A stretch of DNA of 64,000 bases from Escherichia coli (lineage in GTDB: Bacteria > Pseudomonadota > Gammaproteobacteria > Enterobacterales > Enterobacteriaceae), in assembly GCF_003019035.1 (NCBI RefSeq), contig NZ_CP027447.1, one strand, 5' to 3'. Shown here piece by piece: positions 8,477 through 59,451 of the stretch. Position 1 is the first letter of the stretch, and every line of letters starts with the position of its first letter. The notes beneath the pieces were generated by a model that worked only from the letters and a program-made list of their open reading frames with translations, made no database searches and had not been told where the DNA came from. The position numbers and the translations under genes were made by a program.

Positions 8477-9127
8477 TCAGAAAATGCGCTCCTGATGCAC
8501 CCATACCGCTGCTTCCACGCGAGACTTGAGCTTCATTTTCTTCAGCATGTGCTTGACGTGCACTTTTACTGTGCTTTCGGTGATATCCAGGCGGCGGGCA
8601 ATCATCTTGTTCGGCAAACCCTGGGCAATCAGCTTGAGAATATCGCGCTCGCGTGGGGTTAACTGGTTAACGTCGCGCTCAGTAGTGGCACGGTTTGCGC
8701 GCAAGCTGGCGGCCAGAACAGGCGTTAATGCTTCGCTTAATACCATTTCGCCAGCAGCTGCCTGATGCAATGCTTTCAGCAGATCTTCCGGTTCCATATC
8801 TTTTAACAGATAGCCATCCGCGCCGCGTTTCAGTGCGGTGACCACATCTTCTTCATGGTTAGAGACGCTGAATACCACAATGCGCCCTGAGAGGGACTTT
8901 TCGCGGAGTTTATCCAGCGTTTCCAGACCATTCATGCCGGGCATATTGAGATCTAACAGGATCAGATCGGGATCAAGAGATTCCGCCAGTTCAATACCCT
9001 GTTCGCCATTACTCGCTTCGCCAACCACGGTGATATCTGGTGCCATACTGATAAGCTGTTTTACGCCAGTTCGCAGCATCGGGTGATCGTCGATCAGCAG
9101 GATAGTAGCCGGTTCCTGATTACTCAT
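8477..9127 (-). CDS. narL: nitrate/nitrite response regulator NarL
   Basis: ORF track 8477..9241 trimmed to ATG 9127 ([21 protein letters not shown]...), 216 aa; receiver domain plus LuxR-type HTH; start overlaps narX stop. Confidence 0.95.
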
Positions 9128-10916
9128 GGGTATCTCCTTGGACGTCTGTGAAAGTTTTTTCGGGAATAAAGGTGACAACCACTTCGGTGCCACCTGATTC
9201 ACGACGGCGGACGCGGCAATCGCCTCGTAAACTTTGCGCACGGTCGCGCATTATTATCATGCCGTAGTGATTGCTGCGGATGGCATTTTCAGGCACGCCG
9301 CAGCCGTTATCCTGGACGGTCAGTTTGACCTGATTATCGTTTTGCGCCACCGTCACCACGACCTCACTCGCTTGCGAATGTTTGAGGGCGTTACTTAATG
9401 CCTCACGGGCAATTTGCAACAAGTGGATTGCCTGATGCGAAGGCACCAGACGAGGCGGCAATTGATAATCCAGCTTCACCGGGAAGCCAAATTTGGCGCT
9501 GTACTCTTCGCAACTCGCCTCCAGCGCCGGACGTAATCCAGGCTCGGTGAGCTGCAAGCGGAATGTGGTGAGCAATTCACGCAACTGCGCCCAGGATGCA
9601 TTCAGTTCGTTACGGATCTGACTTAACAGTTCGCGGCTGCTTTCTGGCAGCGCATCGCCCTGCATCTGTAAACAACTCACCTGCATCTTCATGCAAGAGA
9701 GAGATTGGGCAATAGAATCATGCAGTTCGCGCGCAATGGTGGCACGCTCTTCCATCACGATCAACTGTTGCTGACGTTCCTGATGCCGATCCAGCGCCAG
9801 CGTGGCGGTGAGTTGTTCAACCAGGGTATCCACCAGTTGTTGTTGATCATGGCTAAGATGACGCCCCTGCGGCAGGGTCGCCAGCAAAATACCGTACTGC
9901 GTATGAGAGTCAGCCAGCCGCCACTTCAGGGTTGTGCCGCGATCGCCAACGGGTAATATGCCGCGCGGGCAGAGCTGGCAGCCTTTATCATCACAAGTCA
10001 TATCTGGCTGGCAGGTAAACTCCTGATGATTCTCTTCATCATCAGTGTCATACACCCGCAGTTCGATATCACGTAGCAGGGTTAAATTCTGTAAGCCGTT
10101 GAGTACCGGTGACAGGCGTTCACACAGCGGGGCGCGGGAATGCAAACGGCGGTTAGCCTGCCATAAAAAAGAGAGGATCTGATTTTTATGCTCCAGCCCG
10201 GCAGTTTTCTCCTGAACCCGCTGCTCAAGTACGGCATAACTTTCGGCCAGTTCTGCAGACATATTGTTCAATGCAGTTCCAAGCATCGCCATTTCGTTGC
10301 GCCCGCTGATGTTTGCGCGTTGGGTAAAATCGCGATGGCTGACGGCACTCGCCATTGCCAGCAGTTGCCGCCACGGTTGTAGCAGTCGCGCCCGCAACCA
10401 GATAATAGTGAACACCAGTAAAAGTGCCATAAATACCGCCATTACCCGATGGACCAGAACCACTGTTTCAATGCGCATTTCCGTGGTGCGGTCAAAACCA
10501 GATACCAGCTGATCAAGCCCGGCAACAAACTGGCTGACATCCGCTGACACCGTTTCGCGGTTTTGTGCACGCATCAGCGCAGGGATCAGTTCATTACGCC
10601 AGTAATCTTGTAAACCCTGTAATTGCGCCAGTTGTCCGTCTCGTTCCGCTGCTCGAGTCAACTCGGCGCTAAATGCCGTTTGTTCCATTTCTTTAATTAA
10701 GGGCTTGTCTTTCTCGCTTAATGGCACTGCCGCCAACAGACGGTAACTTTGCATGCGCAGCGATCCCGCTTTGTTGATCGCATGGGCGCTGCCCTGAACG
10801 CCTTGCACTAGCCAGCCAGAAACTGCCATCCCTGCCAGTCCAATAGCAGTAGAAAGCAACACAATAAGCGCAACCTGATTAACCAGGGTGAGCGGAGAGA
10901 GACAACGTTTAAGCAT
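9120..10916 (-). CDS. narX: nitrate/nitrite sensor histidine kinase NarX
   Basis: 598-aa ORF with two TM segments, HAMP region, H-box (ELHDSIAQ) and ATPase domain; immediately upstream of narL. Confidence 0.95.
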
Positions 10917-11181
10917 GTAAACCTCTTCCTTCAGGCTTTAAATGAGCAATAACCTTAATGAATGTGACGATACATTCTGGAATGGCAGTATTCTCGGCTA
11001 TTGGCTGAAGTATACCCATACCCGGAAAGAGTTACTCCTTATTTGCCGCGTGGTTAGTCGCTTTACATCGGTAAGGGTAGGGATTTTACAGCACTGTGAA
11101 AAATCTCATAATTTTTATGAAATCACTGTACTCACTATGGGTAATGATAAATATCAATGATAGATAAAGTTATCTTATCGT

Positions 11182-11195
11182 TTGATTTACATCAA
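11182..11195 (+). promoter_or_regulatory. FNR-type site (TTGAT-N4-ATCAA) in narK promoter
   Basis: Sequence TTGATTTACATCAA centred ~66 nt upstream of narK ATG, consistent with a class II FNR-activated promoter. Confidence 0.6.
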
Positions 11196-11254
11196 ATTGC
11201 CTTTAGCTACAGACACTAAGGTGGCAGACATCGAAACGAGTATCAGAGGTGTCT

Positions 11255-12646
11255 ATGAGTCACTCATCCGCCCCCGAAAGGGCTACTGGAGCTGTCATTA
11301 CAGATTGGCGACCGGAAGATCCTGCGTTCTGGCAACAACGCGGTCAACGTATTGCCAGCCGCAACCTGTGGATTTCCGTTCCCTGTCTGCTGCTGGCGTT
11401 TTGCGTATGGATGTTGTTCAGCGCTGTTGCGGTGAACTTACCGAAAGTCGGTTTTAATTTTACGACCGATCAGCTATTTATGTTGACTGCGCTGCCTTCG
11501 GTTTCTGGCGCGTTATTACGTGTTCCATACTCCTTTATGGTTCCTATCTTCGGTGGTCGTCGCTGGACGGCGTTCAGCACCGGTATTCTGATTATTCCTT
11601 GCGTCTGGCTGGGTTTTGCCGTGCAGGATACCTCCACGCCTTATAGCGTCTTCATCATCATCTCTCTGCTGTGCGGCTTTGCTGGCGCGAACTTCGCATC
11701 CAGTATGGCAAACATCAGCTTCTTCTTTCCGAAACAGAAGCAGGGGGGGGCGCTGGGTCTGAATGGTGGTCTGGGCAACATGGGCGTCAGCGTCATGCAG
11801 TTGGTTGCTCCGCTGGTGGTATCACTGTCGATTTTCGCAGTATTTGGTAGCCAGGGTGTCAAACAGCCGGATGGGACTGAGCTGTATCTGGCGAATGCGT
11901 CCTGGGTATGGGTGCCGTTCCTTGCCATCTTCACCATTGCGGCGTGGTTTGGCATGAACGATCTTGCTACCTCGAAAGCCTCCATCAAGGAGCAGTTGCC
12001 GGTACTCAAACGGGGTCATCTGTGGATTATGAGCCTGCTGTATCTGGCAACCTTCGGCTCCTTCATCGGCTTCTCCGCGGGCTTTGCGATGCTGTCAAAA
12101 ACGCAGTTCCCGGATGTTCAGATTCTGCAATACGCTTTCTTCGGGCCGTTTATTGGTGCGCTGGCGCGTTCTGCAGGTGGTGCATTATCTGACCGTCTGG
12201 GCGGAACTCGTGTCACGCTGGTGAACTTTATCCTGATGGCGATTTTCAGCGGCCTGCTGTTCCTGACCTTACCGACTGACGGACAGGGCGGAAGCTTCAT
12301 GGCGTTCTTCGCAGTCTTCCTGGCGCTGTTCCTGACAGCTGGGCTGGGTAGTGGTTCCACATTCCAGATGATTTCCGTGATCTTCCGTAAACTGACAATG
12401 GATCGCGTGAAAGCAGAAGGGGGTTCTGACGAACGTGCGATGCGTGAAGCGGCAACCGACACGGCGGCGGCGCTGGGTTTCATCTCTGCGATTGGCGCGA
12501 TTGGTGGCTTCTTTATTCCGAAAGCGTTTGGTAGCTCGCTGGCATTAACGGGTTCGCCAGTCGGCGCAATGAAAGTATTTTTGATTTTCTATATCGCCTG
12601 CGTGGTGATTACCTGGGCGGTATATGGTCGGCATTCTAAAAAATAA
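11255..12646 (+). CDS. narK: nitrate/nitrite transporter NarK (MFS)
   Basis: ORF track 11249..12646 trimmed to ATG 11255 (MSHSSAPERATGAVITDWRPEDPAFWQQ...), 463 aa, 12-TM MFS. Confidence 0.95.
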   Translation: MSHSSAPERATGAVITDWRPEDPAFWQQRGQRIASRNLWISVPCLLLAFCVWMLFSAVAVNLPKVGFNFTTDQLFMLTALPSVSGALLRVPYSFMVPIFGGRRWTAFSTGILIIPCVWLGFAVQDTSTPYSVFIIISLLCGFAGANFASSMANISFFFPKQKQGGALGLNGGLGNMGVSVMQLVAPLVVSLSIFAVFGSQGVKQPDGTELYLANASWVWVPFLAIFTIAAWFGMNDLATSKASIKEQLPVLKRGHLWIMSLLYLATFGSFIGFSAGFAMLSKTQFPDVQILQYAFFGPFIGALARSAGGALSDRLGGTRVTLVNFILMAIFSGLLFLTLPTDGQGGSFMAFFAVFLALFLTAGLGSGSTFQMISVIFRKLTMDRVKAEGGSDERAMREAATDTAAALGFISAIGAIGGFFIPKAFGSSLALTGSPVGAMKVFLIFYIACVVITWAVYGRHSKK

Positions 12647-12669
12647 ATCTTAATATTTGATTATCCTTT

Positions 12670-12695
12670 GCGCGGCATGATGTCGCGCTTTTTTT
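12670..12695 (+). terminator. rho-independent terminator after narK
   Basis: GCGCG/CGCGC stem with 9-nt loop followed by T7. Confidence 0.6.
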
Positions 12696-12770
12696 ATGCG
12701 TCATTTAGTTACAACATACTCATATTATATGGCTTATTTCGCCGGATTTCATTAAGAGCCATTAATATGT

Positions 12771-12800
12771 TACCCATGGGGAATACTCCTTAATACCCAT
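12771..12800 (+). promoter_or_regulatory. cluster of NarL heptamer-like sites (TACCCAT / TACTCCT) upstream of narG
   Basis: Three TACYYMT-type heptamers at 12771-12777, 12784-12790 and 12794-12800, ~200 bp upstream of the narG FNR site, matching the known architecture of the narG control region. Confidence 0.5.
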
Positions 12801-12933
12801 CTGCATAAAAATCTTAATAGTTTAAATAACTACAGGTATAAAACGTCTTAATTTACAGCGTGTTATGCTGTAACTGCTAATTATCCCAAAGGGGTATCTT
12901 AGGAATTTACTTTATTTTTCATCCCCATCACTC

Positions 12934-12947
12934 TTGATCGTTATCAA
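12934..12947 (+). promoter_or_regulatory. FNR site (TTGATCGTTATCAA) of the narGHJI promoter
   Basis: Near-perfect FNR consensus ~98 bp upstream of narG ATG. Confidence 0.7.
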
Positions 12948-13038
12948 TTCTCACGCTGTTTCAGAGCGTTACCTTGCCCTTAAACATTAGCAATGTCGAT
13001 TTATCAGAGGGCCGACAGGCTCCCACAGGAGAAAACCG

Positions 13039-16000
13039 ATGAGTAAATTCCTGGACCGGTTTCGCTACTTCAAACAGAAGGGTGAAACCTTTGCCGATGG
13101 GCATGGCCAGCTTCTCAATACCAACCGTGACTGGGAGGATGGATATCGCCAGCGTTGGCAGCATGACAAAATCGTCCGCTCTACCCACGGGGTAAACTGC
13201 ACCGGCTCCTGCAGCTGGAAAATCTACGTCAAAAACGGTCTGGTGACCTGGGAAACCCAGCAGACTGACTATCCGCGTACTCGCCCGGACCTGCCAAACC
13301 ATGAACCTCGCGGCTGCCCGCGCGGTGCCAGCTACTCCTGGTATCTTTACAGCGCCAACCGCCTGAAATACCCAATGATGCGCAAACGCCTGATGAAAAT
13401 GTGGCGTGAAGCGAAGGCGCTGCATAGCGATCCGGTTGAGGCATGGGCTTCTATCATTGAAGACGCCGATAAAGCGAAAAGCTTTAAGCAGGCGCGTGGA
13501 CGCGGTGGTTTTGTTCGTTCTTCCTGGCAGGAAGTGAATGAACTGATCGCCGCCTCTAACGTTTACACCATCAAAAACTACGGCCCGGACCGTGTCGCTG
13601 GTTTCTCGCCAATTCCGGCAATGTCGATGGTTTCTTACGCATCGGGTGCACGCTATCTTTCGCTGATTGGCGGTACTTGCTTAAGCTTCTACGACTGGTA
13701 CTGCGACCTGCCTCCTGCGTCTCCGCAAACCTGGGGTGAGCAAACTGACGTACCGGAATCTGCTGACTGGTACAACTCCAGCTACATCATCGCCTGGGGT
13801 TCAAATGTGCCGCAGACGCGTACCCCGGATGCTCACTTCTTTACTGAAGTGCGTTACAAAGGGACCAAAACTGTTGCCGTCACACCAGACTACGCTGAAA
13901 TCGCCAAACTGTGCGATCTGTGGCTGTCACCGAAACAGGGCACCGATGCGGCAATGGCGCTGGCAATGGGTCACGTAATGCTGCGTGAATTCCACCTCGA
14001 CAACCCAAGCCAGTATTTCACCGACTATGTGCGCCGCTACACCGACATGCCGATGCTGGTGATGCTGGAAGAGCGCGACGGTTACTACGCTGCGGGTCGT
14101 ATGCTGCGCGCTGCTGATCTGGTGGATGCACTGGGCCAGGAAAACAATCCGGAATGGAAAACTGTCGCCTTTAATACCAATGGCGAAATGGTTGCGCCGA
14201 ACGGTTCTATTGGCTTCCGCTGGGGCGAGAAGGGCAAATGGAATCTTGAGCAGCGCGACGGCAAAACTGGCGAAGAAACCGAGCTGCAACTGAGCCTGCT
14301 GGGTAGCCAGGATGAGATCGCTGAGGTGGGCTTCCCGTACTTTGGTGGCGACGGCACGGAACACTTCAACAAAGTGGAACTGGAAAACGTGCTGCTGCAC
14401 AAGCTGCCGGTGAAACGCTTGCAACTGGCTGATGGCAGCACCGCACTGGTGACCACCGTTTATGATTTGACGCTGGCAAACTATGGTCTGGAACGTGGCC
14501 TGAACGACGTTAACTGTGCAACCAGCTATGACGATGTGAAAGCTTACACTCCGGCGTGGGCCGAGCAAATCACTGGCGTTTCTCGTAGCCAGATTATCCG
14601 TATTGCCCGTGAATTTGCCGATAACGCTGACAAGACGCACGGTCGTTCGATGATTATCGTCGGTGCGGGGCTGAACCACTGGTATCACCTCGATATGAAC
14701 TATCGTGGTCTGATCAACATGCTGATTTTCTGCGGCTGTGTCGGTCAGAGCGGGGGCGGCTGGGCGCACTATGTAGGTCAGGAAAAACTGCGTCCGCAAA
14801 CCGGCTGGCAGCCGCTGGCGTTTGCCCTTGACTGGCAGCGTCCGGCGCGTCACATGAACAGCACTTCTTATTTCTATAACCACTCCAGCCAGTGGCGTTA
14901 TGAAACCGTCACGGCGGAAGAGTTGCTGTCACCGATGGCGGATAAATCCCGTTATACCGGACACCTGATCGACTTTAACGTCCGTGCGGAACGCATGGGC
15001 TGGCTGCCGTCTGCACCGCAGTTAGGCACTAACCCGCTGACTATCGCTGGCGAAGCGGAAAAAGCCGGGATGAATCCGGTGGACTATACGGTGAAATCCC
15101 TGAAAGAGGGTTCCATCCGTTTTGCGGCAGAACAACCAGAAAACGGTAAAAACCACCCGCGCAACCTGTTCATCTGGCGTTCTAACCTGCTCGGTTCTTC
15201 CGGTAAAGGTCATGAGTTTATGCTCAAGTACCTGCTGGGGACGGAGCACGGTATCCAGGGTAAAGATCTGGGGCAGCAGGGCGGCGTGAAGCCGGAAGAA
15301 GTGGACTGGCAGGACAATGGTCTGGAAGGCAAGCTGGATCTGGTGGTTACGCTGGACTTCCGTCTGTCGAGCACCTGTCTCTATTCCGACATCATTTTGC
15401 CGACGGCGACCTGGTACGAAAAAGACGACATGAATACTTCGGATATGCATCCGTTTATTCACCCGCTGTCTGCGGCGGTCGATCCGGCCTGGGAAGCGAA
15501 AAGCGACTGGGAAATCTACAAAGCCATCGCCAGGAAATTCTCCGAAGTGTGCGTTGGTCATCTGGGTAAAGAAACCGACATCGTCACGCTGCCTATCCAG
15601 CACGACTCTGCCGCTGAACTGGCACAGCCGCTGGATGTGAAAGACTGGAAAAAAGGCGAATGCGACCTGATCCCAGGTAAAACTGCACCGCACATTATGG
15701 TCGTAGAGCGCGATTATCCGGCGACTTACGAACGCTTTACCTCTATCGGCCCGCTGATGGAGAAAATCGGTAATGGCGGTAAAGGGATTGCCTGGAACAC
15801 CCAGAGCGAGATGGATCTGCTGCGTAAGCTCAACTACACCAAAGCGGAAGGTCCGGCAAAAGGTCAGCCGATGCTCAATACCGCAATTGATGCGGCAGAG
15901 ATGATCCTGACACTGGCACCGGAAACCAACGGTCAGGTAGCCGTGAAAGCCTGGGCTGCCCTGAGCGAATTTACCGGTCGTGACCATACGCATCTGGCGC

Positions 16001-16782
16001 TGAATAAAGAAGACGAGAAGATCCGCTTCCGCGATATTCAGGCACAGCCGCGCAAAATTATCTCCAGCCCGACCTGGTCTGGTCTGGAAGATGAACACGT
16101 TTCTTACAACGCCGGTTACACCAACGTTCACGAGCTGATCCCGTGGCGTACGCTCTCTGGTCGTCAGCAACTGTATCAGGATCACCAGTGGATGCGTGAT
16201 TTCGGTGAAAGCCTGCTGGTTTATCGTCCGCCGATCGACACCCGTTCGGTGAAAGAAGTGATGGGGCAGAAATCCAACGGCAACCCGGAAAAAGCGCTCA
16301 ACTTCCTGACGCCGCACCAGAAGTGGGGTATCCACTCCACCTACAGCGACAACCTGCTGATGCTGACTTTAGGTCGCGGTGGTCCGGTGGTCTGGCTGAG
16401 TGAAGCCGATGCCAAAGATCTGGGCATTGCCGATAACGACTGGATTGAAGTCTTCAACAGCAACGGTGCTCTGACTGCCCGTGCGGTTGTCAGCCAGCGT
16501 GTTCCGGCAGGGATGACCATGATGTACCACGCGCAGGAACGTATCGTTAACCTGCCTGGTTCGGAAATTACCCAACAGCGTGGTGGTATCCATAACTCGG
16601 TTACCCGTATCACGCCGAAACCGACGCATATGATCGGCGGCTATGCCCATCTGGCATACGGCTTTAACTACTACGGCACCGTAGGTTCTAACCGCGATGA
16701 GTTTGTTGTAGTGCGTAAGATGAAGAACATTGACTGGTTAGATGGCGAAGGCAATGACCAGGTACAGGAGAGCGTAAAATGA
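13039..16782 (+). CDS. narG: respiratory nitrate reductase A alpha subunit
   Basis: 1247-aa ORF; N-terminal Fe-S binding HxxxCxxxC-type motif region (STHGVNCTGSCSWKIY) and molybdopterin oxidoreductase signature. Confidence 0.97.
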   Translation: MSKFLDRFRYFKQKGETFADGHGQLLNTNRDWEDGYRQRWQHDKIVRSTHGVNCTGSCSWKIYVKNGLVTWETQQTDYPRTRPDLPNHEPRGCPRGASYSWYLYSANRLKYPMMRKRLMKMWREAKALHSDPVEAWASIIEDADKAKSFKQARGRGGFVRSSWQEVNELIAASNVYTIKNYGPDRVAGFSPIPAMSMVSYASGARYLSLIGGTCLSFYDWYCDLPPASPQTWGEQTDVPESADWYNSSYIIAWGSNVPQTRTPDAHFFTEVRYKGTKTVAVTPDYAEIAKLCDLWLSPKQGTDAAMALAMGHVMLREFHLDNPSQYFTDYVRRYTDMPMLVMLEERDGYYAAGRMLRAADLVDALGQENNPEWKTVAFNTNGEMVAPNGSIGFRWGEKGKWNLEQRDGKTGEETELQLSLLGSQDEIAEVGFPYFGGDGTEHFNKVELENVLLHKLPVKRLQLADGSTALVTTVYDLTLANYGLERGLNDVNCATSYDDVKAYTPAWAEQITGVSRSQIIRIAREFADNADKTHGRSMIIVGAGLNHWYHLDMNYRGLINMLIFCGCVGQSGGGWAHYVGQEKLRPQTGWQPLAFALDWQRPARHMNSTSYFYNHSSQWRYETVTAEELLSPMADKSRYTGHLIDFNVRAERMGWLPSAPQLGTNPLTIAGEAEKAGMNPVDYTVKSLKEGSIRFAAEQPENGKNHPRNLFIWRSNLLGSSGKGHEFMLKYLLGTEHGIQGKDLGQQGGVKPEEVDWQDNGLEGKLDLVVTLDFRLSSTCLYSDIILPTATWYEKDDMNTSDMHPFIHPLSAAVDPAWEAKSDWEIYKAIARKFSEVCVGHLGKETDIVTLPIQHDSAAELAQPLDVKDWKKGECDLIPGKTAPHIMVVERDYPATYERFTSIGPLMEKIGNGGKGIAWNTQSEMDLLRKLNYTKAEGPAKGQPMLNTAIDAAEMILTLAPETNGQVAVKAWAALSEFTGRDHTHLALNKEDEKIRFRDIQAQPRKIISSPTWSGLEDEHVSYNAGYTNVHELIPWRTLSGRQQLYQDHQWMRDFGESLLVYRPPIDTRSVKEVMGQKSNGNPEKALNFLTPHQKWGIHSTYSDNLLMLTLGRGGPVVWLSEADAKDLGIADNDWIEVFNSNGALTARAVVSQRVPAGMTMMYHAQERIVNLPGSEITQQRGGIHNSVTRITPKPTHMIGGYAHLAYGFNYYGTVGSNRDEFVVVRKMKNIDWLDGEGNDQVQESVK

Positions 16783-18317
16783 AAATTCGTTCACAAGTCG
16801 GCATGGTGCTGAATCTCGATAAGTGCATCGGCTGCCACACCTGTTCAGTTACCTGTAAAAACGTCTGGACCAGCCGCGAAGGCGTGGAATACGCGTGGTT
16901 CAACAACGTGGAAACCAAGCCGGGCCAGGGCTTCCCGACTGACTGGGAAAACCAGGAAAAATACAAAGGCGGCTGGATCCGTAAAATCAACGGCAAACTG
17001 CAGCCGCGCATGGGTAACCGCGCCATGCTGCTGGGTAAAATCTTCGCTAACCCGCATCTGCCGGGGATCGACGATTATTACGAGCCGTTCGATTTTGACT
17101 ATCAGAACCTGCATACCGCGCCGGAAGGCAGCAAGTCGCAGCCGATTGCCCGTCCGCGTTCGCTGATTACCGGCGAACGGATGGCGAAAATCGAAAAAGG
17201 GCCGAACTGGGAAGATGACCTGGGCGGTGAGTTCGACAAGCTGGCGAAAGACAAGAACTTCGACAACATCCAGAAGGCGATGTATAGCCAGTTCGAAAAC
17301 ACCTTCATGATGTATTTGCCGCGCCTGTGCGAACACTGCCTGAACCCGGCATGTGTGGCGACCTGCCCGAGCGGTGCGATTTACAAGCGTGAAGAAGATG
17401 GCATCGTCCTGATCGACCAGGATAAATGCCGTGGCTGGCGTATGTGCATCACCGGATGCCCGTACAAAAAAATCTACTTCAACTGGAAGAGCGGTAAGTC
17501 TGAGAAGTGCATCTTCTGCTATCCGCGTATTGAAGCGGGTCAGCCGACCGTGTGCTCAGAAACCTGTGTCGGTCGTATCCGTTATCTCGGCGTGCTGTTG
17601 TACGATGCCGACGCGATTGAACGTGCGGCAAGTACCGAGAACGAGAAAGATCTCTACCAGCGTCAGCTGGATGTGTTCCTCGATCCGAACGATCCGAAAG
17701 TCATCGAGCAGGCGATTAAAGACGGTATTCCGCTGAGCGTTATTGAAGCCGCACAGCAGTCACCGGTTTATAAAATGGCGATGGAATGGAAACTGGCGCT
17801 GCCGCTGCATCCGGAATATCGCACACTGCCGATGGTCTGGTACGTGCCGCCTCTGTCTCCGATTCAGTCTGCAGCAGATGCGGGTGAGCTGGGCAGCAAC
17901 GGCATTCTGCCAGACGTCGAAAGCCTGCGTATTCCGGTACAGTATCTGGCGAATCTGCTGACCGCCGGTGATACCAAACCGGTACTGCGCGCGCTGAAAC
18001 GTATGCTGGCAATGCGTCATTATAAACGTGCTGAAACCGTTGACGGGAAAGTGGATACCCGTGCGCTGGAAGAGGTCGGTCTGACCGAAGCCCAGGCACA
18101 GGAGATGTACCGTTATCTGGCGATTGCTAACTACGAAGATCGCTTTGTGGTGCCGAGTAGTCATCGTGAACTGGCGCGGGAAGCCTTCCCGGAGAAAAAT
18201 GGCTGCGGCTTTACCTTTGGTGATGGCTGCCACGGTTCAGATACCAAATTCAATCTGTTCAACAGCCGCCGTATCGATGCCATCGACGTAACCAGCAAAA
18301 CGGAGCCGCACCCATGA
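16779..18317 (+). CDS. narH: respiratory nitrate reductase A beta subunit (Fe-S)
   Basis: 512-aa ORF with four Cys clusters (CIGCHTCSVTC, CEHCLNPACVATCP, CRGWRMCITGCP, CIFCYPR); overlaps narG stop. Confidence 0.97.
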   Translation: MKIRSQVGMVLNLDKCIGCHTCSVTCKNVWTSREGVEYAWFNNVETKPGQGFPTDWENQEKYKGGWIRKINGKLQPRMGNRAMLLGKIFANPHLPGIDDYYEPFDFDYQNLHTAPEGSKSQPIARPRSLITGERMAKIEKGPNWEDDLGGEFDKLAKDKNFDNIQKAMYSQFENTFMMYLPRLCEHCLNPACVATCPSGAIYKREEDGIVLIDQDKCRGWRMCITGCPYKKIYFNWKSGKSEKCIFCYPRIEAGQPTVCSETCVGRIRYLGVLLYDADAIERAASTENEKDLYQRQLDVFLDPNDPKVIEQAIKDGIPLSVIEAAQQSPVYKMAMEWKLALPLHPEYRTLPMVWYVPPLSPIQSAADAGELGSNGILPDVESLRIPVQYLANLLTAGDTKPVLRALKRMLAMRHYKRAETVDGKVDTRALEEVGLTEAQAQEMYRYLAIANYEDRFVVPSSHRELAREAFPEKNGCGFTFGDGCHGSDTKFNLFNSRRIDAIDVTSKTEPHP

Positions 18318-19024
18318 TCGAACTCGTGATTGTATCGCGTCTCCTTGAATATCCGGATGCTGCCTTATGGCAGCATCAACAAGAGATGTTTGAGGCGATT
18401 GCCGCGTCGAAAAATCTGTCGAAAGAAGATGCCCATGCGCTGGGCATTTTCCTGCGCGATTTAACGGCGATGGATCCGCTCGATGCTCAGGCCCAGTACA
18501 GCGAACTGTTCGACCGTGGCCGCGCCACGTCACTGTTGCTGTTTGAACATGTGCACGGCGAATCCCGCGACCGCGGTCAGGCGATGGTAGACCTGCTGGC
18601 GCAGTATGAGCAGCACGGTTTGCAGTTAAACAGCCGCGAATTGCCCGACCATCTGCCGCTGTATCTGGAGTACCTGGCGCAGCTGCCGCAAAGCGAAGCC
18701 GTGGAAGGTTTGAAAGATATTGCGCCGATTCTGGCATTGCTGAGTGCGCGTCTGCAACAGCGTGAAAGCCGTTATGCCGTGCTGTTTGATCTGCTGCTGA
18801 AACTGGCGAATACCGCTATCGACAGCGACAAAGTGGCGGAAAAAATTGCCGACGAAGCGCGCGACGATACGCCGCAGGCGCTGGATGCCGTTTGGGAAGA
18901 AGAGCAGGTTAAATTCTTTGCTGACAAAGGCTGCGGTGATTCAGCAATCACTGCCCATCAACGTCGCTTTGCCGGTGCCGTCGCACCGCAATATCTGAAT
19001 ATCACCACCGGAGGACAGCACTAA
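18314..19024 (+). CDS. narJ: nitrate reductase assembly chaperone NarJ
   Basis: 236-aa ORF overlapping narH stop. Confidence 0.95.
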
Positions 19025-19701
19025 TGCAATTCCTGAATATGTTCTTCTTTGATATCTACCCGTACATAGCCGGGGCGGTCTTCCTGATTGGTAGCTGGCT
19101 GCGTTATGACTACGGGCAGTACACCTGGCGCGCGGCGTCCAGCCAGATGCTGGATCGCAAAGGGATGAACCTGGCATCGAACCTGTTCCATATCGGTATT
19201 CTGGGGATTTTTGTCGGTCACTTCTTCGGTATGTTGACGCCGCACTGGATGTATGAAGCCTGGCTGCCGATTGAAGTGAAACAGAAAATGGCGATGTTTG
19301 CTGGTGGTGCCAGCGGTGTGCTGTGTCTGATTGGCGGCGTGCTGTTGCTGAAGCGTCGTCTGTTCAGCCCACGCGTGCGTGCAACCACTACCGGAGCGGA
19401 TATCCTGATCCTGTCGCTGCTCGTTATCCAGTGCGCGCTGGGCTTGCTGACCATTCCGTTCTCCGCCCAACATATGGACGGTAGCGAGATGATGAAACTG
19501 GTTGGCTGGGCGCAGTCGGTAGTGACCTTCCACGGTGGCGCTTCTCAACACCTTGATGGTGTGGCGTTTATCTTCCGTCTGCACCTGGTGCTGGGGATGA
19601 CGTTATTCCTGCTGTTCCCGTTCTCGCGTCTGGTGCACATCTGGAGCGTCCCGGTGGAGTATCTGACACGTAAGTATCAGCTGGTGCGCGCTCGTCACTA
19701 A
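19024..19701 (+). CDS. narI: respiratory nitrate reductase A gamma subunit (cytochrome b)
   Basis: 225-aa hydrophobic ORF overlapping narJ stop by 1 nt. Confidence 0.95.
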
Positions 19702-19722
19702 GCGAATTTTAGTTCACATAGA

Positions 19723-19745
19723 CCCTGCTTCGGCGGGGTTTTTTT
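19723..19745 (+). terminator. rho-independent terminator of narGHJI
   Basis: Stem CCCTGC/GCGGGG with TTCG tetraloop followed by T7, 22 nt after narI stop. Confidence 0.7.
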
Positions 19746-19884
19746 ATGGGCACGGTGCGGGGTGAGTTGTCGGATGCGCTTCGCTTATCCGAACTTCAGG
19801 GGAGGATATTTTAGGTCCGGTAAACGCGGTGCCATCGGGCAGAATTAGCTCGGAGTAACAGGTTTTGAGTATTTCAGGAAGTAT

Positions 19885-19969
<85 letters not shown>

Positions 19970-20002
19970 AGGGGTAATTCAAATTCTGAGGTAATGCTTG
20001 AG

Positions 20003-20087
<85 letters not shown>

Positions 20088-20138
20088 CACGGGGTAATGC
20101 TTTTTACTGGCCTGCTCCCTTATCGGGAAGCGGGGCGC

Positions 20139-20166
20139 ATCATATCAAATGACGCGCCGCTGTAAA
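20139..20166 (-). promoter_or_regulatory. tyrT promoter (-35 TTTACA, 16-bp spacer, -10 TATGAT, GC-rich discriminator)
   Basis: Minus-strand sequence TTTACAGCGGCGCGTCATTTGATATGATGCGCCCCGCTTCCCGATAAGGG is the classical stringently controlled tyrT promoter; about 43-nt leader to the tRNA 5' end. Confidence 0.8.
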
Positions 20167-20247
20167 GTGTTACGTTGAGAAAAATGAACTGGTTGCGTAA
20201 TTTTCATCCGTAACGGATTAAAGGTAACCAGTTATTTTTGCTGGCGA

Positions 20248-21090
20248 TTAAAGAATAATCGTCCGATTACCGTAAACAAAGACGCGCTGCGCCAGTACTT
20301 TGTAGAGTGCGCGACTTAAGACGTTTTTCTCGACGTCACGACCTGCGCGCATCATATCTTCAGCTGTGTAGGTATGATCGACATGAATAACGTCCTGCAT
20401 GATGATTGGACCTTCGTCCAGATTGTCATTCACATAGTGAGCGGTTGCGCCAATAATCTTCACGCCACGTTCATAGGCCTGGTGATAAGGACGTGCGCCG
20501 ATAAACGCTGGCAGGAATGAATGGTGAATATTGATGATCTTATTCGGGAAGCGTGCCACAAATTCTGGCGTTAATACCCGCATATACTTCGCCAGCACCA
20601 CGTAGTCAGGCTGATAAGCATCAATGGCATCCGCCATCTTTTGATCGTGCTCGTTGCGACTTAATCCTTCATGACTTACCAGCTCAAACGGAATATCAAA
20701 ACGCTCAACCAGAGAACGTAAAGTATCGTGGTTACCAATAACTGCCGCGATTTCGACATCCAGGCCGCCGTAATTGGCTTTCATCAACAAATCGCCAAGG
20801 CAATGCGCCTCTTTAGTGACCAGAATCACTATCCGGCGACGACCGGCAGGATTCAGCTCACGTACGGAGCCTTCTGGCAATGCGCTGTCGAGATCCGCCA
20901 GCAGGGTGGAATCATTAAAAATTCCTTCCAGTTCCGTGCGCATAAAAAAGCGCCCGGTACGGTGATCAACAAATTCATTGTTCTGCACGATATTTAACTC
21001 GTGCTTGTAGCAAATATTGGTAATACGTGCGATCAGACCTTTTTGGTCCGGACAAATAGTACGCAGAACTTTACGTTGGAGTGAATGCAT
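20248..21090 (-). CDS. purU: formyltetrahydrofolate deformylase
   Basis: 280-aa ORF with N-terminal ACT domain and C-terminal formyltransferase domain. Confidence 0.93.
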   Translation of the reverse strand: MHSLQRKVLRTICPDQKGLIARITNICYKHELNIVQNNEFVDHRTGRFFMRTELEGIFNDSTLLADLDSALPEGSVRELNPAGRRRIVILVTKEAHCLGDLLMKANYGGLDVEIAAVIGNHDTLRSLVERFDIPFELVSHEGLSRNEHDQKMADAIDAYQPDYVVLAKYMRVLTPEFVARFPNKIINIHHSFLPAFIGARPYHQAYERGVKIIGATAHYVNDNLDEGPIIMQDVIHVDHTYTAEDMMRAGRDVEKNVLSRALYKVLAQRVFVYGNRTIIL

Positions 21091-21139
21091 TGCTGGAAAA
21101 ACCTTGTTGAGAGTGTTTGCTAAACCGTACCGTCAACCA

Positions 21140-21598
21140 TTATTGGCCGCAGCACTTTTTAAATTTTTTACCTGAACCACAAGGGCAGGGATCGTTGCGG
21201 CCAAACTGCGGACGTGTACCGTCAATATAGTACCATTGACCGTTTTCTTTCAAAAATCGCGAACGTTCAATGATTGCACCTGTTTTGCCACCTTCGGTAA
21301 ATCGAGCAACAAAACTGACAAATCCGATATTGTCGGCGTCCTGCCAACAATGTTCAAATACGGTCAATCCCAACCATTCAGTATGCGCAAATCCGGCCAT
21401 CAATTCGGCACGTAACGCCGCCGCTCCACAAGATGGATGCCAGGTCTTTATTAAATAATCTGCGTCTTTCATCACAAAAGCGCAGTAACGCGAACGCATG
21501 AGATGTTCTGGATCAGGTGCAACCTTTTCACCAGACACATAAGGGTGGCAACATAGGCTATACTCGACAGCACTACCACAGGGACAAAGCTGAGACAC
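21140..21598 (-). CDS. ychJ: SEC-C metal-binding motif protein YchJ
   Basis: ORF track 21140..21619 trimmed to GTG 21598 (152 aa); CPCGS motifs at both ends (SQLCPCGSA..., [16 protein letters not shown]). Confidence 0.85.
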
Positions 21599-21710
21599 AA
21601 ATAATCTCCCTGGAAACAATAACGGCGTATTAACCGCCTGAGTAGCACTATGTTAACCGAGCAGTAGCGATGTGGCTACGATTGCATTCCAGGGGAATCT
21701 TGCGGGAATA

Positions 21711-22616
21711 ATGAGAAAGATAAAAATAGGGCTGGCGCTGGGATCTGGCGCGGCGAGAGGTTGGTCGCATATTGGCGTTATTAATGCGCTAAAAAAAGTG
21801 GGTATTGAAATTGATATCGTTGCAGGATGCTCAATTGGTTCGCTGGTGGGCGCGGCCTATGCATGCGATCGATTATCTGCGCTGGAAGATTGGGTAACCT
21901 CTTTCAGTTATTGGGATGTTTTACGCCTGATGGATCTCTCCTGGCAGCGCGGTGGGTTACTGCGCGGCGAGCGTGTCTTCAATCAATATCGCGAAATAAT
22001 GCCTGAAACAGAGATCGAAAATTGTTCCCGTCGCTTCGCGGCTGTTGCCACCAATTTAAGTACTGGGCGCGAATTATGGTTTACTGAAGGCGATCTCCAT
22101 CTTGCTATTCGTGCATCATGCAGTATTCCAGGACTAATGGCACCCGTTGCGCATAACGGCTACTGGCTGGTTGATGGCGCTGTAGTTAACCCAATTCCTA
22201 TTTCGCTCACGCGTGCATTGGGTGCTGATATTGTGATAGCGGTCGACCTGCAGCACGATGCTCATTTGATGCAACAAGATCTGCTCTCCTTTAATGTCAG
22301 TGAAGAAAATAGCGAGAATGGTGATTCTCTGCCGTGGCATGCGCGTCTGAAAGAAAGGTTGGGCAGCATAACGACACGTCGGGCGGTGACAGCGCCAACG
22401 GCAACAGAGATTATGACCACTTCTATCCAGGTGCTGGAGAACCGCCTTAAAAGGAACCGCATGGCAGGTGATCCGCCCGATATTCTGATTCAACCTGTTT
22501 GCCCGCAAATATCTACGCTTGATTTCCATCGCGCGCACGCTGCCATTGCGGCTGGGCAGCTGGCAGTGGAAAAGAAAATGGACGAACTTTTGCCGTTGGT
22601 ACGCACCAACATTTGA
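21711..22616 (+). CDS. rssA: patatin-like phospholipase RssA
   Basis: ORF track 21672..22616 trimmed to ATG 21711 (MRKIKIGLALGSGAARG...), 301 aa; GxSxG lipase motif (GCSIGS). Confidence 0.9.
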   Translation: MRKIKIGLALGSGAARGWSHIGVINALKKVGIEIDIVAGCSIGSLVGAAYACDRLSALEDWVTSFSYWDVLRLMDLSWQRGGLLRGERVFNQYREIMPETEIENCSRRFAAVATNLSTGRELWFTEGDLHLAIRASCSIPGLMAPVAHNGYWLVDGAVVNPIPISLTRALGADIVIAVDLQHDAHLMQQDLLSFNVSEENSENGDSLPWHARLKERLGSITTRRAVTAPTATEIMTTSIQVLENRLKRNRMAGDPPDILIQPVCPQISTLDFHRAHAAIAAGQLAVEKKMDELLPLVRTNI

Positions 22617-54882: not shown

Positions 54883-54909
54883 CAAATTTCGTTCCACGGA
54901 TGGAAGATT

Positions 54910-56799
54910 ATGGCAGGGATATATCGCTGCATTTTGCTGTTGATAGTTGGGCTTTTTTTCTCTTCGTTGAGTTATGCGAAAAACACGGAGATCCCTTCTT
55001 ATGAAGAAGGGATCTCGCTCTTTGATGTTGAAGCCACTCTGCAACCGGATGGGGTGCTCGACATCAAAGAAAATATTCATTTTCAGGCGCGAAATCAGCA
55101 GATTAAGCACGGATTTTATCGTGATTTACCACGACTCTGGATGCAGCCTGATGGGGACGCTGCACTGCTGAACTATCATATTGTTGGCGTCACCCGTGAT
55201 GGTATTCCTGAACCCTGGCATCTTGACTGGCATATCGGGTTAATGAGTATTGTCGTGGGCGATAAACAACGTTTCTTGCCTCAAGGCGACTATCATTATC
55301 AAATTCATTATCAGGTTAAAAATGCTTTCCTGCGTGAAGGGGATTCTGATCTGCTAATCTGGAACGTGACCGGTAACCACTGGCCGTTTGAAATTTATAA
55401 GACCCTATTTTCACTCAAGTTGCCTGATATTGCGGGTAATCCATTTAGCGAAATCGATCTCTTTACTGGAGAAGAGGGCGACACATATCGAAATGGCCGC
55501 ATCCTTGAGGACGGAAGAATTGAATCCCGCGATCCGTTTTATCGTGAAGATTTCACGGTACTCTACCGCTGGCCTCACGCTTTACTTAGCAATGCCCCGG
55601 CTCCACAAACGACGAATATTTTCAGCCATCTTCTTTTACCCTCCACGTCATCGTTGTTAATTTGGTTTCCTTGTCTATTCCTGGTTTGTGGATGGTTATA
55701 TCTCTGGAAGCGCAGGCCGCAATTTACGCCGGTAGATGTGATTGAAACCGATGTCATTCCGCCAGATTACACGCCCGGCATGTTACGTCTCGATGCGAAG
55801 CTGGTTTACGATGATAAAGGTTTTTGTGCCGATATCGTAAATCTGATTGTGAAAGGAAAAATTCATCTGGAAGATCAGTATGATAAGAACCAGCAAATCC
55901 TGATTCGTGTTAATGAAGGCGCGACCAGAAATAATGCGGTATTACTGCCCGCAGAGCAGTTATTACTGGAAGCGTTATTTCGTAAAGGCGATAAGGTCGT
56001 TCTTACGGGGAGACGCAACATAGTCTTACGCAGGGCATTTTTACGGATGCAGAAATTTTATCTGCCGCGTAAAAAGTCTTCGTTTTATCGACCAGATGCG
56101 TTTTTGCAATGGGGTGGACTGGCAATATTGGCGGTCATTCTCTACGGTAACCTGAGTCCCGTAGGTTGGGCAGGAATGAGTCTGGTAGGCGATATGTTTA
56201 TTATGATCTGCTGGATTATTCCTTTTTTATTTTGTTCCCTTGAGCTTTTGTTTGCCCGCGATGATGACAAGCCTTGCGTTAATCGTGTAATCATCACTTT
56301 GTTTTTACCGCTGATTTGTTCAGGCGTGGCCTTTTACTCTCTCTATATCAATGTCGGAGATGTATTCTTTTACTGGTATATGCCAGCGGGTTATTTTAGC
56401 GCTGTTTTCCTGACCGGCTATCTCACTGGCATGGGGTATATTTTTCTGCCAAAGTTTACCCAAACTGGGCAGCAACGTTATGCCCACGGTGAAGCTATCG
56501 TTAACTATCTTGCGCGTAAAGAGGCAGCAACACACAGTGGGCGTCGGCGGAAAGGGGAAACACGGAAACTGGATTACGCGTTGCTAGGTTGGGCAGTCTC
56601 GGCAAACCTTGGCAGAGAATGGGCAGCACGTATCACGCCGTCACTCACAGCGGCTGTTCGCGCCCCGGAAATTGCCCGTAGTGGCGTTTTATTCTCATTA
56701 CAGACGCACCTGAGTTGCGGGGCCTATACCAGTTTGTTGGGGCGGAGCTATTCCGGTGGTGGTTCTGGCGCTGGTGGCGGAGGCGGTAGTGGCTGGTAA
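54910..56799 (+). CDS. yciQ: DUF2207-family membrane protein YciQ
   Basis: 629-aa ORF with signal peptide, several TM helices and Gly-rich C-terminal tail (GGGSGAGGGGGSGW). Confidence 0.85.
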   Translation: MAGIYRCILLLIVGLFFSSLSYAKNTEIPSYEEGISLFDVEATLQPDGVLDIKENIHFQARNQQIKHGFYRDLPRLWMQPDGDAALLNYHIVGVTRDGIPEPWHLDWHIGLMSIVVGDKQRFLPQGDYHYQIHYQVKNAFLREGDSDLLIWNVTGNHWPFEIYKTLFSLKLPDIAGNPFSEIDLFTGEEGDTYRNGRILEDGRIESRDPFYREDFTVLYRWPHALLSNAPAPQTTNIFSHLLLPSTSSLLIWFPCLFLVCGWLYLWKRRPQFTPVDVIETDVIPPDYTPGMLRLDAKLVYDDKGFCADIVNLIVKGKIHLEDQYDKNQQILIRVNEGATRNNAVLLPAEQLLLEALFRKGDKVVLTGRRNIVLRRAFLRMQKFYLPRKKSSFYRPDAFLQWGGLAILAVILYGNLSPVGWAGMSLVGDMFIMICWIIPFLFCSLELLFARDDDKPCVNRVIITLFLPLICSGVAFYSLYINVGDVFFYWYMPAGYFSAVFLTGYLTGMGYIFLPKFTQTGQQRYAHGEAIVNYLARKEAATHSGRRRKGETRKLDYALLGWAVSANLGREWAARITPSLTAAVRAPEIARSGVLFSLQTHLSCGAYTSLLGRSYSGGGSGAGGGGGSGW

Positions 56800-57009
56800 T
56801 CAAGCTGATATTAATCGAAACAAGCTTTAACCATAAAGATAGTGTAGTATGTTGCGCCTCAAAGCCAGGCCGATAAACGTCGAGTCGTTTACTTAAGGCC
56901 TGAAGAGTTCAAACAGACTTTACTATCAGTGAGTCAGATGTAAGTTCTGACTCACTGTTGCACAAAAGCATATCAGACGCCTGGGAAGGCGACACCAAAA
57001 GGAAGCTCT

Positions 57010-57885: not shown

Positions 57886-57906
57886 TTTAAGTTAAGTATA
57901 AAATAA

Positions 57907-57929
57907 AGGCCCTGCGGGGCCTTTTCTTC
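57907..57929 (+). terminator. rho-independent terminator after rluB
   Basis: Perfect stem AGGCCC/GGGCCT with TGCG loop followed by TTTCTTC. Confidence 0.7.
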
Positions 57930-58054
57930 ATTTGAAGTATGATAAATAGTCGCAGTATTTTAATTTAATTTCATACTTGCTTATGAATATTACCAGGAAA
58001 TAGCCACATTACTATTTAATTATCTGAGATAAACTCAACGTCAAGAGGTGGGTT

Positions 58055-59077
58055 ATGATTAGATATAGTGGAATATTTCTATCGCTGTTAATGCTTTCAG
58101 GTTGTGCAACCGAAGCATTGAAGAATGAACAAGCTGAAACTGTTATTACTGCGGGTAACAAGGCGGTTGCGGCGAATGCAAGTTTCTTTAAACAATACTA
58201 TGCTTCTCGTGAAAATTTCCTTGTTAATTTTTATGCGACTAATCCGGATTGTGCATTGCGACCTGATTATGAAACGATTATGGAAAATAATACTAATAAA
58301 GAGTCCTTATGTATGCAATCAGAGAAAGGGGACAAAACATCGTATAAAGACGTTACTAAAGTTCAATTGGCAACAACAGAAAAACAAAAGCTACTGGCTT
58401 CACTTGAGGTCGTTAACAGTATGAGCTCCTATGTGGAGTTGTTGACGGTGGATATGGATGTTGACGATAGTAAACAAATTATATTACTTAATCAGGCGCT
58501 CGATCATGCAAACAACGCCCAAAAACTACTTGGACTTTCAGAAGGTGAAGAACTGACTAAGTCAGCTGTAGCTGTTAAAGATTTAGTTCAATATTTCAAT
58601 GGATTATATAAAGAGAAGATTAAATCAGAAAATGTTGGTAAAACGGTAGGTAGTGACTGGCCACGACTTCAAAGAAATTTACAAGATTTACTTGAAGATA
58701 TAGCAACGAAACAGCAGCAAATGGATCGGAATAATTTTGCGAACATCAGTAATAATTTTTATTACTATAATAAGGCCCGGGAAAATACTAAAAATATAGA
58801 ATTTAAGACATTAAAGAGCAGGCAGGAATTTTTGAGTGCAGTAATTAATCTTAATGAAAGCAGATTGCGTTCATCTGATCCGGCGGCTCCAGCAATACAA
58901 GCTATTAATGCCTTCATGGATAAAGGAAATCATCTACAAGATTTATACTCTAATAAATCTCTTTCAAAAGCGGATTTAGAGCGTAGGAATGAGATCCTGC
59001 GTGCTCAAGTTATTAGTGGTCTTCAGGCGTCAGAGGAGCTGGCAAAACTTCTTATTGCCAGCGGAGTTATGTTATAG
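58055..59077 (+). CDS. predicted lipoprotein of unknown function (340 aa)
   Basis: ATG preceded by AAGAGGTG RBS; N-terminus MIRYSGIFLSLLMLSGC has a signal peptide with LSGC lipobox (Ala at +2, not Asp); remainder Asn/Lys/Gln/Glu-rich, likely helical; no family recognisable by eye. Confidence 0.7.
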   Translation: MIRYSGIFLSLLMLSGCATEALKNEQAETVITAGNKAVAANASFFKQYYASRENFLVNFYATNPDCALRPDYETIMENNTNKESLCMQSEKGDKTSYKDVTKVQLATTEKQKLLASLEVVNSMSSYVELLTVDMDVDDSKQIILLNQALDHANNAQKLLGLSEGEELTKSAVAVKDLVQYFNGLYKEKIKSENVGKTVGSDWPRLQRNLQDLLEDIATKQQQMDRNNFANISNNFYYYNKARENTKNIEFKTLKSRQEFLSAVINLNESRLRSSDPAAPAIQAINAFMDKGNHLQDLYSNKSLSKADLERRNEILRAQVISGLQASEELAKLLIASGVML

Positions 59078-59086
59078 GAGGTCATT

Positions 59087-59395
59087 ATGAACGATGTGCA
59101 AAATCGACGAATACTGGCATTGCTCAATATGCTGTACTATGCCTTAGGAAACCGAACAACTTGCGATATATGTCACAAATATTTTATTCTGGTTTTGTCG
59201 GTAATGAATAATCTGACAATTAATTATGGCTCGCAAACGTCACCAGAACTGACTGGTATTAGTTATGAAGATGCTAATGATTTGATCACTGAATTAATAC
59301 TGTTTATTGAAGACGTCAATGCGGATAATGACATGGAATATCCCGCACACTTGAATAAAATTCAAGCTCTTCTTAATTTTGCCGTGGCTAATTAA
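59087..59395 (+). CDS. small acidic cytoplasmic protein of unknown function (102 aa)
   Basis: ATG 5 nt after AGGAGG RBS that overlaps the stop of the preceding lipoprotein gene (translational coupling); no signal peptide; CDICH motif and acidic C-terminal half. Confidence 0.65.
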   Translation: MNDVQNRRILALLNMLYYALGNRTTCDICHKYFILVLSVMNNLTINYGSQTSPELTGISYEDANDLITELILFIEDVNADNDMEYPAHLNKIQALLNFAVAN

Positions 59396-59416
59396 GCCAT
59401 TCAGTATCTAAAATTA

Positions 59417-59445
59417 GCACCTCAAGAGGCGATCTTTTGAGGTGC
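59417..59445 (-). terminator. hairpin downstream of btuR (probably bidirectional terminator)
   Basis: Inverted repeat GCACCTCAAGA...TCTTTTGAGGTGC immediately after btuR stop and after the cassette's second ORF. Confidence 0.55.
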
Positions 59446-59451
59446 TTTCCC

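Follow-up and report, generated by a model that had tools for sequence, protein, structure and literature searches.

A palindrome in the rluB leader region of Escherichia coli and its probable origin as the scar of an integrated island

Among described arrangements, the lambda-type attP/attR site comes closest to what we found ahead of rluB. The mobile islands inserted there resemble it in having an adjacent tyrosine integrase, a core duplicated at both ends, TGTGTGACA in both arms, and, on either side of the core and some 15-45 bp away from it, perfect matches to the IHF consensus. They depart from it in that the predicted IHF-like sites on the integrase side are paired in inverted orientation and can also fold into a hairpin as RNA, and the copy of this pair in the DNA studied here departs further, being without integrase, arm motifs, partner core or consensus. 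A second parallel is offered by the islands whose integrases target the 5′ end of dusA (PMC4482086). In both cases the islands enter at one invariable site, the 5′ end of a housekeeping gene for RNA modification, and displace the original upstream region; the two differ in that the rluB target is a hairpin in an untranslated leader and not coding sequence.

Two further classes of inverted repeat invite comparison. Intrinsic terminators and REP-like 3′ stem-loops share with the element ahead of rluB a stable intergenic stem-loop and, in its island versions, a U run; the copy studied here, unlike them, has neither a U run nor a mapped 3′ end, is single-copy (in contrast to REP, BIME and ERIC), and matches no Rfam family. 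Quasipalindrome template-switch hotspots, which are established in E. coli mutagenesis, are likewise near-perfect palindromes whose arms change together, but they represent a mutational process rather than a function and would leave unexplained the excess of G.U over A.C pairs on one strand that is reported below.

The palindrome and its distribution

We analyzed a 64-kb stretch of E. coli DNA (hereafter, the window). The original prediction, made from its letters, was of a perfect 12-bp palindrome with a 7-nt loop lying about 50 nt upstream of rluB, which for want of a U run would not be a typical intrinsic terminator and which could be either an RNA processing or stability element or a site for a dimeric regulator. 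The features needed to follow this prediction up are these.

54883..56975, no strand assigned: variable segment, consisting of yciQ and what is very probably a decayed island right end; it stands in place of the 66-nt native spacer of yciQ-less E. coli
54910..56799, plus strand: yciQ, DUF2207 membrane protein (open reading frame; Pfam PF09972 and PF20990; E. coli annotation), the only surviving gene of the segment
56927..56957, no strand assigned: the palindrome, homologue of the island inverted repeat CAGTGAGTTA...TAACTCRTTG
56976..56991, no strand assigned: att core GACGCCTGGGAAGGCG, single-copy in the window; it also folds into a 5-bp stem capped by a GGGA tetraloop and lies 18 nt ahead of the rluB start codon
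57010..57885, plus strand: rluB, 23S rRNA pseudouridine(2605) synthase (open reading frame; annotation)

The predicted coordinates and the full complementarity of the arms were confirmed. The palindrome, CAGTGAGTCAGA-TGTAAGT-TCTGACTCACTG, has two arms of 12 nt (56927-56938 and 56946-56957) that are 100% complementary across a 7-nt gap, with 6 G-C pairs in the stem, and the ATG at 57010, which lies 52 nt past its end and so close to the predicted distance, belongs to a gene that is rluB in matching E. coli annotations. The sequence right after the palindrome is TTGCACAAAAGC, with UUGCACAAAAGC next to the stem and no U run, and a simple terminator scan of the window spacer found 0 sites at the palindrome, which bears out the view that this is not a typical intrinsic terminator. 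Folded alone, the hairpin has a predicted energy of -20.1 kcal/mol on the plus strand and -19.6 kcal/mol on the minus strand (z of about -5.5 to -6.2), and it sits in a 231-nt spacer that is unusually structured as a whole (z = -5.6). Even when as many as 3 mismatches are tolerated, the palindrome occurs a single time in the window, and 0 of 100 shuffles contained the pattern. Three perfect hairpin-type inverted repeats with arms of at least 12 nt occur in the 64 kb, this one included; the remaining two have A/T runs and are bidirectional terminators of the usual kind. A search of Rfam 15 at permissive E-values gave no family at the palindrome, the sole overlapping match, attributable to chance, being snoU105B (E = 2.8), whose 17 bits fall well short of the gathering score of 49. 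A separate, imperfect inverted repeat (20 nt, 85% complementary, 3-nt gap) lies at 54981-55023, in the 5′ part of yciQ.

We then surveyed 5,426 complete E. coli genomes, in which the rluB start was matched in 5,422 and the yciQ-rluB spacer in 3,976. The palindrome occurs at a median of one place per genome, and, as it is also present once in the window, we rejected its assignment to the dispersed repeats (REP/BIME, ERIC or MITE). In yciQ-positive strains it is nearly invariant, and its conservation within E. coli is no better than that of its flanks. Of 66 Escherichia metagenome contigs, 43 carried the perfect palindrome, 19 a single C-to-T change that gives a G.U pair in the rluB sense, 3 a loop variant, and 1 another variant at low coverage; these alleles bring no new covariation.

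The gene order in the window is yciO, yciQ (DUF2207), rluB, cobO. The spacer-less E. coli strains that we sampled (L001-L003) have no yciQ, and in them yciO is followed after 100 nt by an intact rluB. When these strains were aligned with the window, identity ended just past the yciO stop codon and restarted at GACGCCTG(G/T)GAAGGCG (GACGCC, window 56976). The segment in between (54883..56975) has a GC content of 0.43-0.47, compared with 0.50-0.55 in the flanks. In the loci of 80 other Enterobacterales species, collected via RluB, yciQ was found upstream of rluB in 0 of 80, and the variable segment was likewise absent from all 80. The compact yciO-rluB arrangement is that of E. albertii, of all Citrobacter and of many other genera, and the palindrome is absent there. 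The conservation across enterobacterial rluB leaders for which the original prediction proposed to look is therefore lacking, the palindrome being missing from these compact-spacer genera and, together with yciQ, from ~27% of complete E. coli genomes. The same prediction had offered poor conservation in close relatives as grounds for giving it up, and such poor conservation is found in part. The palindrome is not a general enterobacterial rluB leader element, since it is not present wherever the gene is.

Islands at a 16-bp core ahead of rluB

A 16-bp core, GACGCCTGKGAAGGCG, precedes rluB in 80 of the 80 sampled species. Across species, its fold is a stem of 5 bp closed by a GNRA-type loop, GUGA or GGGA, and this core hairpin may account for the site being a stable integration target. 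The distance from yciO to the core, in the 75 species with enough sequence, was ≤70 nt (compact) in 21, 71-600 nt in 16 and >600 nt in 38, which leaves 54 of the 75 with a gap of 71 nt to >3 kb. Native compact spacers (L001 1435-1500; L011, L013-L030, L043, L053, L057-L058) keep the box (T/A)ATACT(A/G)(C/T)GCGGCC. Between it and the core lies a G+C-rich hairpin whose stem covaries from genus to genus (GGCGC/GCGCC, GGGGC/GCCCC, CAGGGC/GCCCTG plus T5); box and hairpin could be a promoter with an attenuator-like hairpin, or the yciO terminator.

In several of the species loci, a large tyrosine recombinase adjoins rluB on the opposite strand. Searching E. coli genomes with one such recombinase gene, we found six strains with the gene at rluB and read three of them.

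EC93 (L091): island of 8.3 kb, 13406-21727; left neighbor yciO; cores at 13390 and 21728
A17 (L092): island of about 9 kb, 12594-21695; left neighbor yciO; cores at 12578 and 21696
BA92 (L093): island of 13 kb, 8313-21426; left neighbor yciQ; cores at 8297 and 21427

Each island is bounded by perfect direct repeats of the 16-bp core. Because these repeats stand at both ends of all three islands, we concluded that the core is the attachment site. In EC93 and A17, the left end of the island is preceded by a native spacer that is intact as far as the core. The rluB-proximal end has the same layout in all three: a PF00589 tyrosine integrase on the opposite strand, its start ~80 nt from the core; next, two TGTGTGACA motifs (arm-type-like, with a third copy in the opposite island arm); then the inverted repeat CAGTGAGTTA(N13-15)TAACTCGTTG; then TTTTTGAAAGTATACCA; and then the core. 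The gap from repeat to core is 17-18 nt in the islands and in the window alike. In intact islands, four to six U follow the stem of the repeat; the stem is A/U-rich and the loop long, and a simple terminator scan was negative. We found no relative of the integrase in the phage collection, and the searchable literature held no account of rluB as an integration target or of a rluB-targeting integrase. The cargo of the EC93 and A17 islands includes a YagK/YfjJ-domain protein, a DUF4238 protein and a serine recombinase (A17 also has a RelA/SpoT-domain protein), and that of the BA92 island a DEAD/DEAH helicase, many small open reading frames and a "phage baseplate protein"; the rluB-targeting islands may be defense islands or satellites.

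The arms of the island repeat match the IHF consensus (ATCARTGAGTTA; the consensus strings, WATCARNNNNTTR, were taken from the literature). One match, TATCAGTGAGTTA, lies on the plus strand at -55 from the core, and a AATCAATGAGTTA-like match lies on the minus strand at -27 to -40; on the other side, EC93, A17 and BA92 each have a perfect match in the left arm, 27 nt beyond the core. A perfect WATCARNNNNTTR is found within 58 bp upstream of the core in 25 of the 80 species loci, against 0.009 expected per stretch of that length. Together with the arm motifs and the adjacent integrase, these matches present the layout of a lambda-type attP, to which IHF would bind if the consensus is a sound guide. 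We propose that a family of integrase-bearing islands inserts at the 16-bp core hairpin, which all the Enterobacterales sampled have ahead of rluB. In the intact element, the inverted repeat would most likely form part of an IHF-bent arm of the recombination complex, and in RNA of the rluB sense the same repeat would be an outward-facing hairpin with a U run.

The window spacer as the remains of an island

The following features of the window spacer bear on its relationship to these islands.

56835..56852, minus strand: fossil of the integrase N terminus, TYYTIF (6 codons; RGRTYYTNF when intact), recognized from translation, colinear alignment and a series of remnants in other loci
56845..56858, plus strand: candidate rluB promoter, a -10-like TAGTAT (56845-56850) with a GC-rich GTTGCGCC
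56924..56936, plus strand: degenerate IHF-consensus match TATCAGTGAGTCA, one mismatch to WATCARNNNNTTR; the homologous island position is a perfect match

The spacer aligns colinearly with the right ends of the islands. The two share, in order, the box AAAGATAGTGTAGTATGTTGCGCC, which is made of the integrase codons RGRTYYTNF and of which the window retains TYYTIF; a diverged stretch of 70 nt; the repeat; an 18-nt junction (AAAAGCATATCA versus GAAAGTATACCA); and the core. We had taken the conserved box GTGTAGTATGTGCGG to be simply the rluB promoter, and we revised this assignment, as the same bases, read on the opposite strand, encode the integrase N terminus RGRTYYTNF. Other genera hold integrase remnants of 318, 279, 117, 80, 56, 52, 46, 42 and 29 amino acids, and in every case it is an N-terminal piece that is left beside the repeat. 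In BA92, the left junction of the fresh island consists of an unchanged window-type spacer with an identical palindrome and a copy of the core, and the island supplies its own integrase, repeat and core beside rluB, a case of tandem accretion. The presence of a window-type spacer behind a fresh island implied that the yciQ-rluB spacer is itself the decayed right end of an earlier island. Descent could in principle have run the other way, with the island copying a host leader, but the integrase decay series speaks against it. We therefore consider it very probable that the palindrome originated as an island scar. The perfect palindrome of K-12 would thereby be explained as the dated scar of a site-specific integration, with yciQ and the yciQ-rluB spacer as the remains of the island.

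The scar is no longer a live att pair. The TGTGTGACAG motif, present at both island ends, is absent from the window even with 1 mismatch allowed, and, as the window also has a single core, it cannot recombine as an att pair. What it retains of an att site is homology and position relative to the core; a paired core, an adjacent integrase and arm-type repeats are absent. The right arm of the palindrome, read on the minus strand, has two mismatches to the IHF consensus, and the consensus was broken symmetrically, GAGTTA/TAACTC having become GAGTCA/TGACTC with the arms still perfectly complementary. On our proposal, the window island would have decayed until six codons of the integrase were left, losing the arm-type repeats, the second core and the U run, with the IHF consensus broken; with those losses, the repeat could no longer act in recombination or as a terminator.

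Pairing conservation and present role

We examined pairing in 21 distinct homologues, which are related sequences and represent roughly 8-10 independent events. In these, pairing holds in 93.6% of stem cells, and both sides have changed in 7 of 9 pairs; 0 of 500 shuffles reached the observed values, and slid controls stayed at ≤57%. The non-Watson-Crick stem cells, read in the rluB (plus) sense, comprised 29 G.U and 2 A.C, although the homologues counted are related, so that this excess and the compensatory changes alike stem from fewer independent events. The plus strand also folds much better than the minus strand, both for the BA92 island repeat (-11.2 versus -5.5 kcal/mol) and for a Yersinia fossil repeat (-17.0 versus -7.2 kcal/mol). 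The spacing of the arms ranges from 5 to 18 nt across homologues. These comparative data favor an RNA hairpin in the rluB sense, and to that extent the original suggestion of an RNA element is upheld; that the hairpin acts in processing or stability is something we infer.

A divergent Escherichia lineage, L012, carries the allele CAGTGGGGCAGG...CTGCCCCACTG, which embodies two double compensatory changes and one G.U and occurs in 0 of the 5,426 complete E. coli genomes. It compares with the window as follows.

Palindrome: 9 of 31 positions differ, pairing intact
30 nt before the palindrome: 0 of 30 differ
52 nt after the palindrome: 2 of 52 differ
rluB third-codon positions: 16.8% differ

Another hairpin, the first in the spacer (56866-56905), has its apex AAACGTCGAGTCGTTTACT deleted in L012, which retains the palindrome, and shows a 2-nt indel among E. 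coli strains.

That pairing is kept while the sequence is free argues against a site for a sequence-specific protein. The dimeric-regulator site of the original prediction is disfavored in particular, since a sequence-specific operator would not tolerate the symmetric change seen between the window and L012, and the ancestral arms fit the IHF consensus and not a transcription-factor palindrome. The known palindromes of LexA, CRP, TyrR and the Mar box do not appear to fit that of the window in half-sites or spacing. We also considered whether the palindrome or the core hairpin might mimic the RluB substrate, helix 93 of 23S rRNA with its GUGA loop, and dropped the idea because the GUGAG of the palindrome lies in the stem and not in the loop. 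Pairing of this kind has two possible sources, selection on a hairpin and homogenization by template switching, and both fit here. Palindromes can acquire concerted "compensatory" changes through template switching during replication, and for this reason kept pairing is no proof of selection; the case serves as a warning that a regulatory RNA is not proved just by compensatory changes within a palindrome.

It is conceivable, although we think it rather unlikely, that the palindrome is a relic with no present function, its symmetry made and refreshed by template-switch (quasipalindrome) mutation that copies one arm onto the other. Nothing is left, indeed, of the arm repeats, second core and U run, the integrase is lost but for its remnant, the IHF consensus is gone, rluB is present and intact in palindrome-less strains, and the palindrome, no more conserved than its flanks within E. 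coli, changes faster than synonymous sites in the comparison with L012, as a mutation-prone palindrome would. However, a purely DNA-level process predicts neither the ratio of G.U to A.C nor the better plus-strand folds of the homologues, and the stem has been kept across genera and through several sequence versions. A DNA site that is still in use, with IHF or a dimeric regulator on the arms regulating rluB or marking the att region for islands, strikes us as very unlikely. The ancestral arms are perfect IHF matches, strongly enriched beside the core, the left arm in the window is a single mismatch away, and BA92 shows a window-type site still used for integration; but the right arm is two mismatches off, the L012 change, which is symmetric at two positions per arm, destroys the consensus, and the variable spacing of the arms suits such a site poorly. 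Moreover, palindrome-less empty-site strains were integrated into equally well (EC93 and A17), so that the palindrome is unnecessary in attB, and its single copy per genome means that there is no regulon.

The geometry of 12-bp arms around a 7-bp overlap resembles that of tyrosine-recombinase core sites, and the palindrome might on that account be read as a recombination core of the lox, FRT or dif type. We give this almost no credence and rejected the lox/FRT-like core because the junctions of the islands fall in the 16-bp direct repeat and not in the palindrome, from which it is 19 nt distant; in addition, the loops of homologues are 13-15 nt, and the other island end has no copy of the palindrome. 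Nor do we think it at all probable that the hairpin is a 3′ element of a yciVOQ operon, whether a terminator or an exonuclease-blocking hairpin that stabilizes yciQ mRNA. Its location 128 nt past the yciQ stop codon would suit that role, as would the U run after the homologous hairpin in intact islands and the literature, in which yciVOQ is an operon and rluB is separate from it. The window copy, however, resembles an intrinsic terminator in its G+C-rich stem-loop and in neither its downstream sequence nor its transcript ends, for it has no U run, and the terminator scan was negative. The published Term-seq tables for K-12 under three conditions (PMC7815308) contain no entry for a 3′ end of yciQ or within the yciQ-rluB spacer and place a Rho-dependent end inside yciQ instead. 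Mapping of transcript ends had been proposed with the original prediction, and such tables answer it for 3′ ends, 5′ ends being outside what they cover.

We return to the reading that we prefer, of a mobile-island scar kept as a hairpin in the rluB leader, to which as a whole we assign a probability of roughly 0.65. The yciQ-positive haplotype lacks the promoter-like box that is native to compact spacers (TATACT+ACGCGGCC), and an island-derived -10-like box survives there, from which we infer that rluB is transcribed from the latter. Fossils without an integrase, from several genera, retain a box of the form GTGTA..AT plus a G/C-rich stretch, in which TA...T is invariant and the coding sense of the opposite strand is lost; L012 has TATGAT at the -10-like box. 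Because TA...T is invariant where the coding sense is lost, the GTGTAGTATGTGCGG box may still be a promoter in the fossils. A simple promoter scan of the window spacer and two island ends made no call on the rluB strand. Transcription from the -10-like box would place the palindrome ~80 nt past it, at about +70 to +100 of a leader of ~150 nt. The hairpin that remains, with its pairing kept and its sequence not, would then be transcribed in the rluB 5′ leader, where any action it has would be that of a purely structural stem-loop on the stability or processing of the mRNA.

That the palindrome is today such a structure-only stem-loop of the putative leader is a tentative assignment, to which we allow somewhat less than an even chance. 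A stronger version appears improbable to us, although not negligibly so: that in K-12-type E. coli the end of the island has taken the place of the entire promoter and leader of rluB, a core gene of ribosome biogenesis, with the integrase fossil providing the -10 and the palindrome exapted as a selected stem-loop that sets mRNA stability or processing. If that were true, the islands of this family would supply each gene that they interrupt with a "replacement promoter plus leader" as a portable module. Our searches for literature on yciQ with rluB, and on rluB with an integrase, an island or IHF, returned nothing relevant. There is a practical side as well, since yciQ serves as a "neutral" integration locus in strain engineering, and edits that reach into the spacer may remove what is probably the sole rluB promoter and leader in such strains.

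The far side of rluB is variable too. Between the rluB stop codon and cobO, the window has ~1.57 kb of low-GC DNA (57886-59451; GC 0.34-0.39) where K-12-like strains have 39 nt, and this is a second, unrelated insertion beside rluB. It contains open reading frames at 58055-59077 (340 amino acids, with a lipoprotein-like N terminus ending in LSGC) and 59087-59395 (102 amino acids), neither with a Pfam or PADLOC match. On the minus strand at 57896-58031, sub-threshold Rfam matches to SraG, STnc130 and Atu_C8 share one terminator-like hairpin, AAAAGGCCCCGCAGGGCCTTT, just past rluB, which is probably the terminator of rluB or of the insert.
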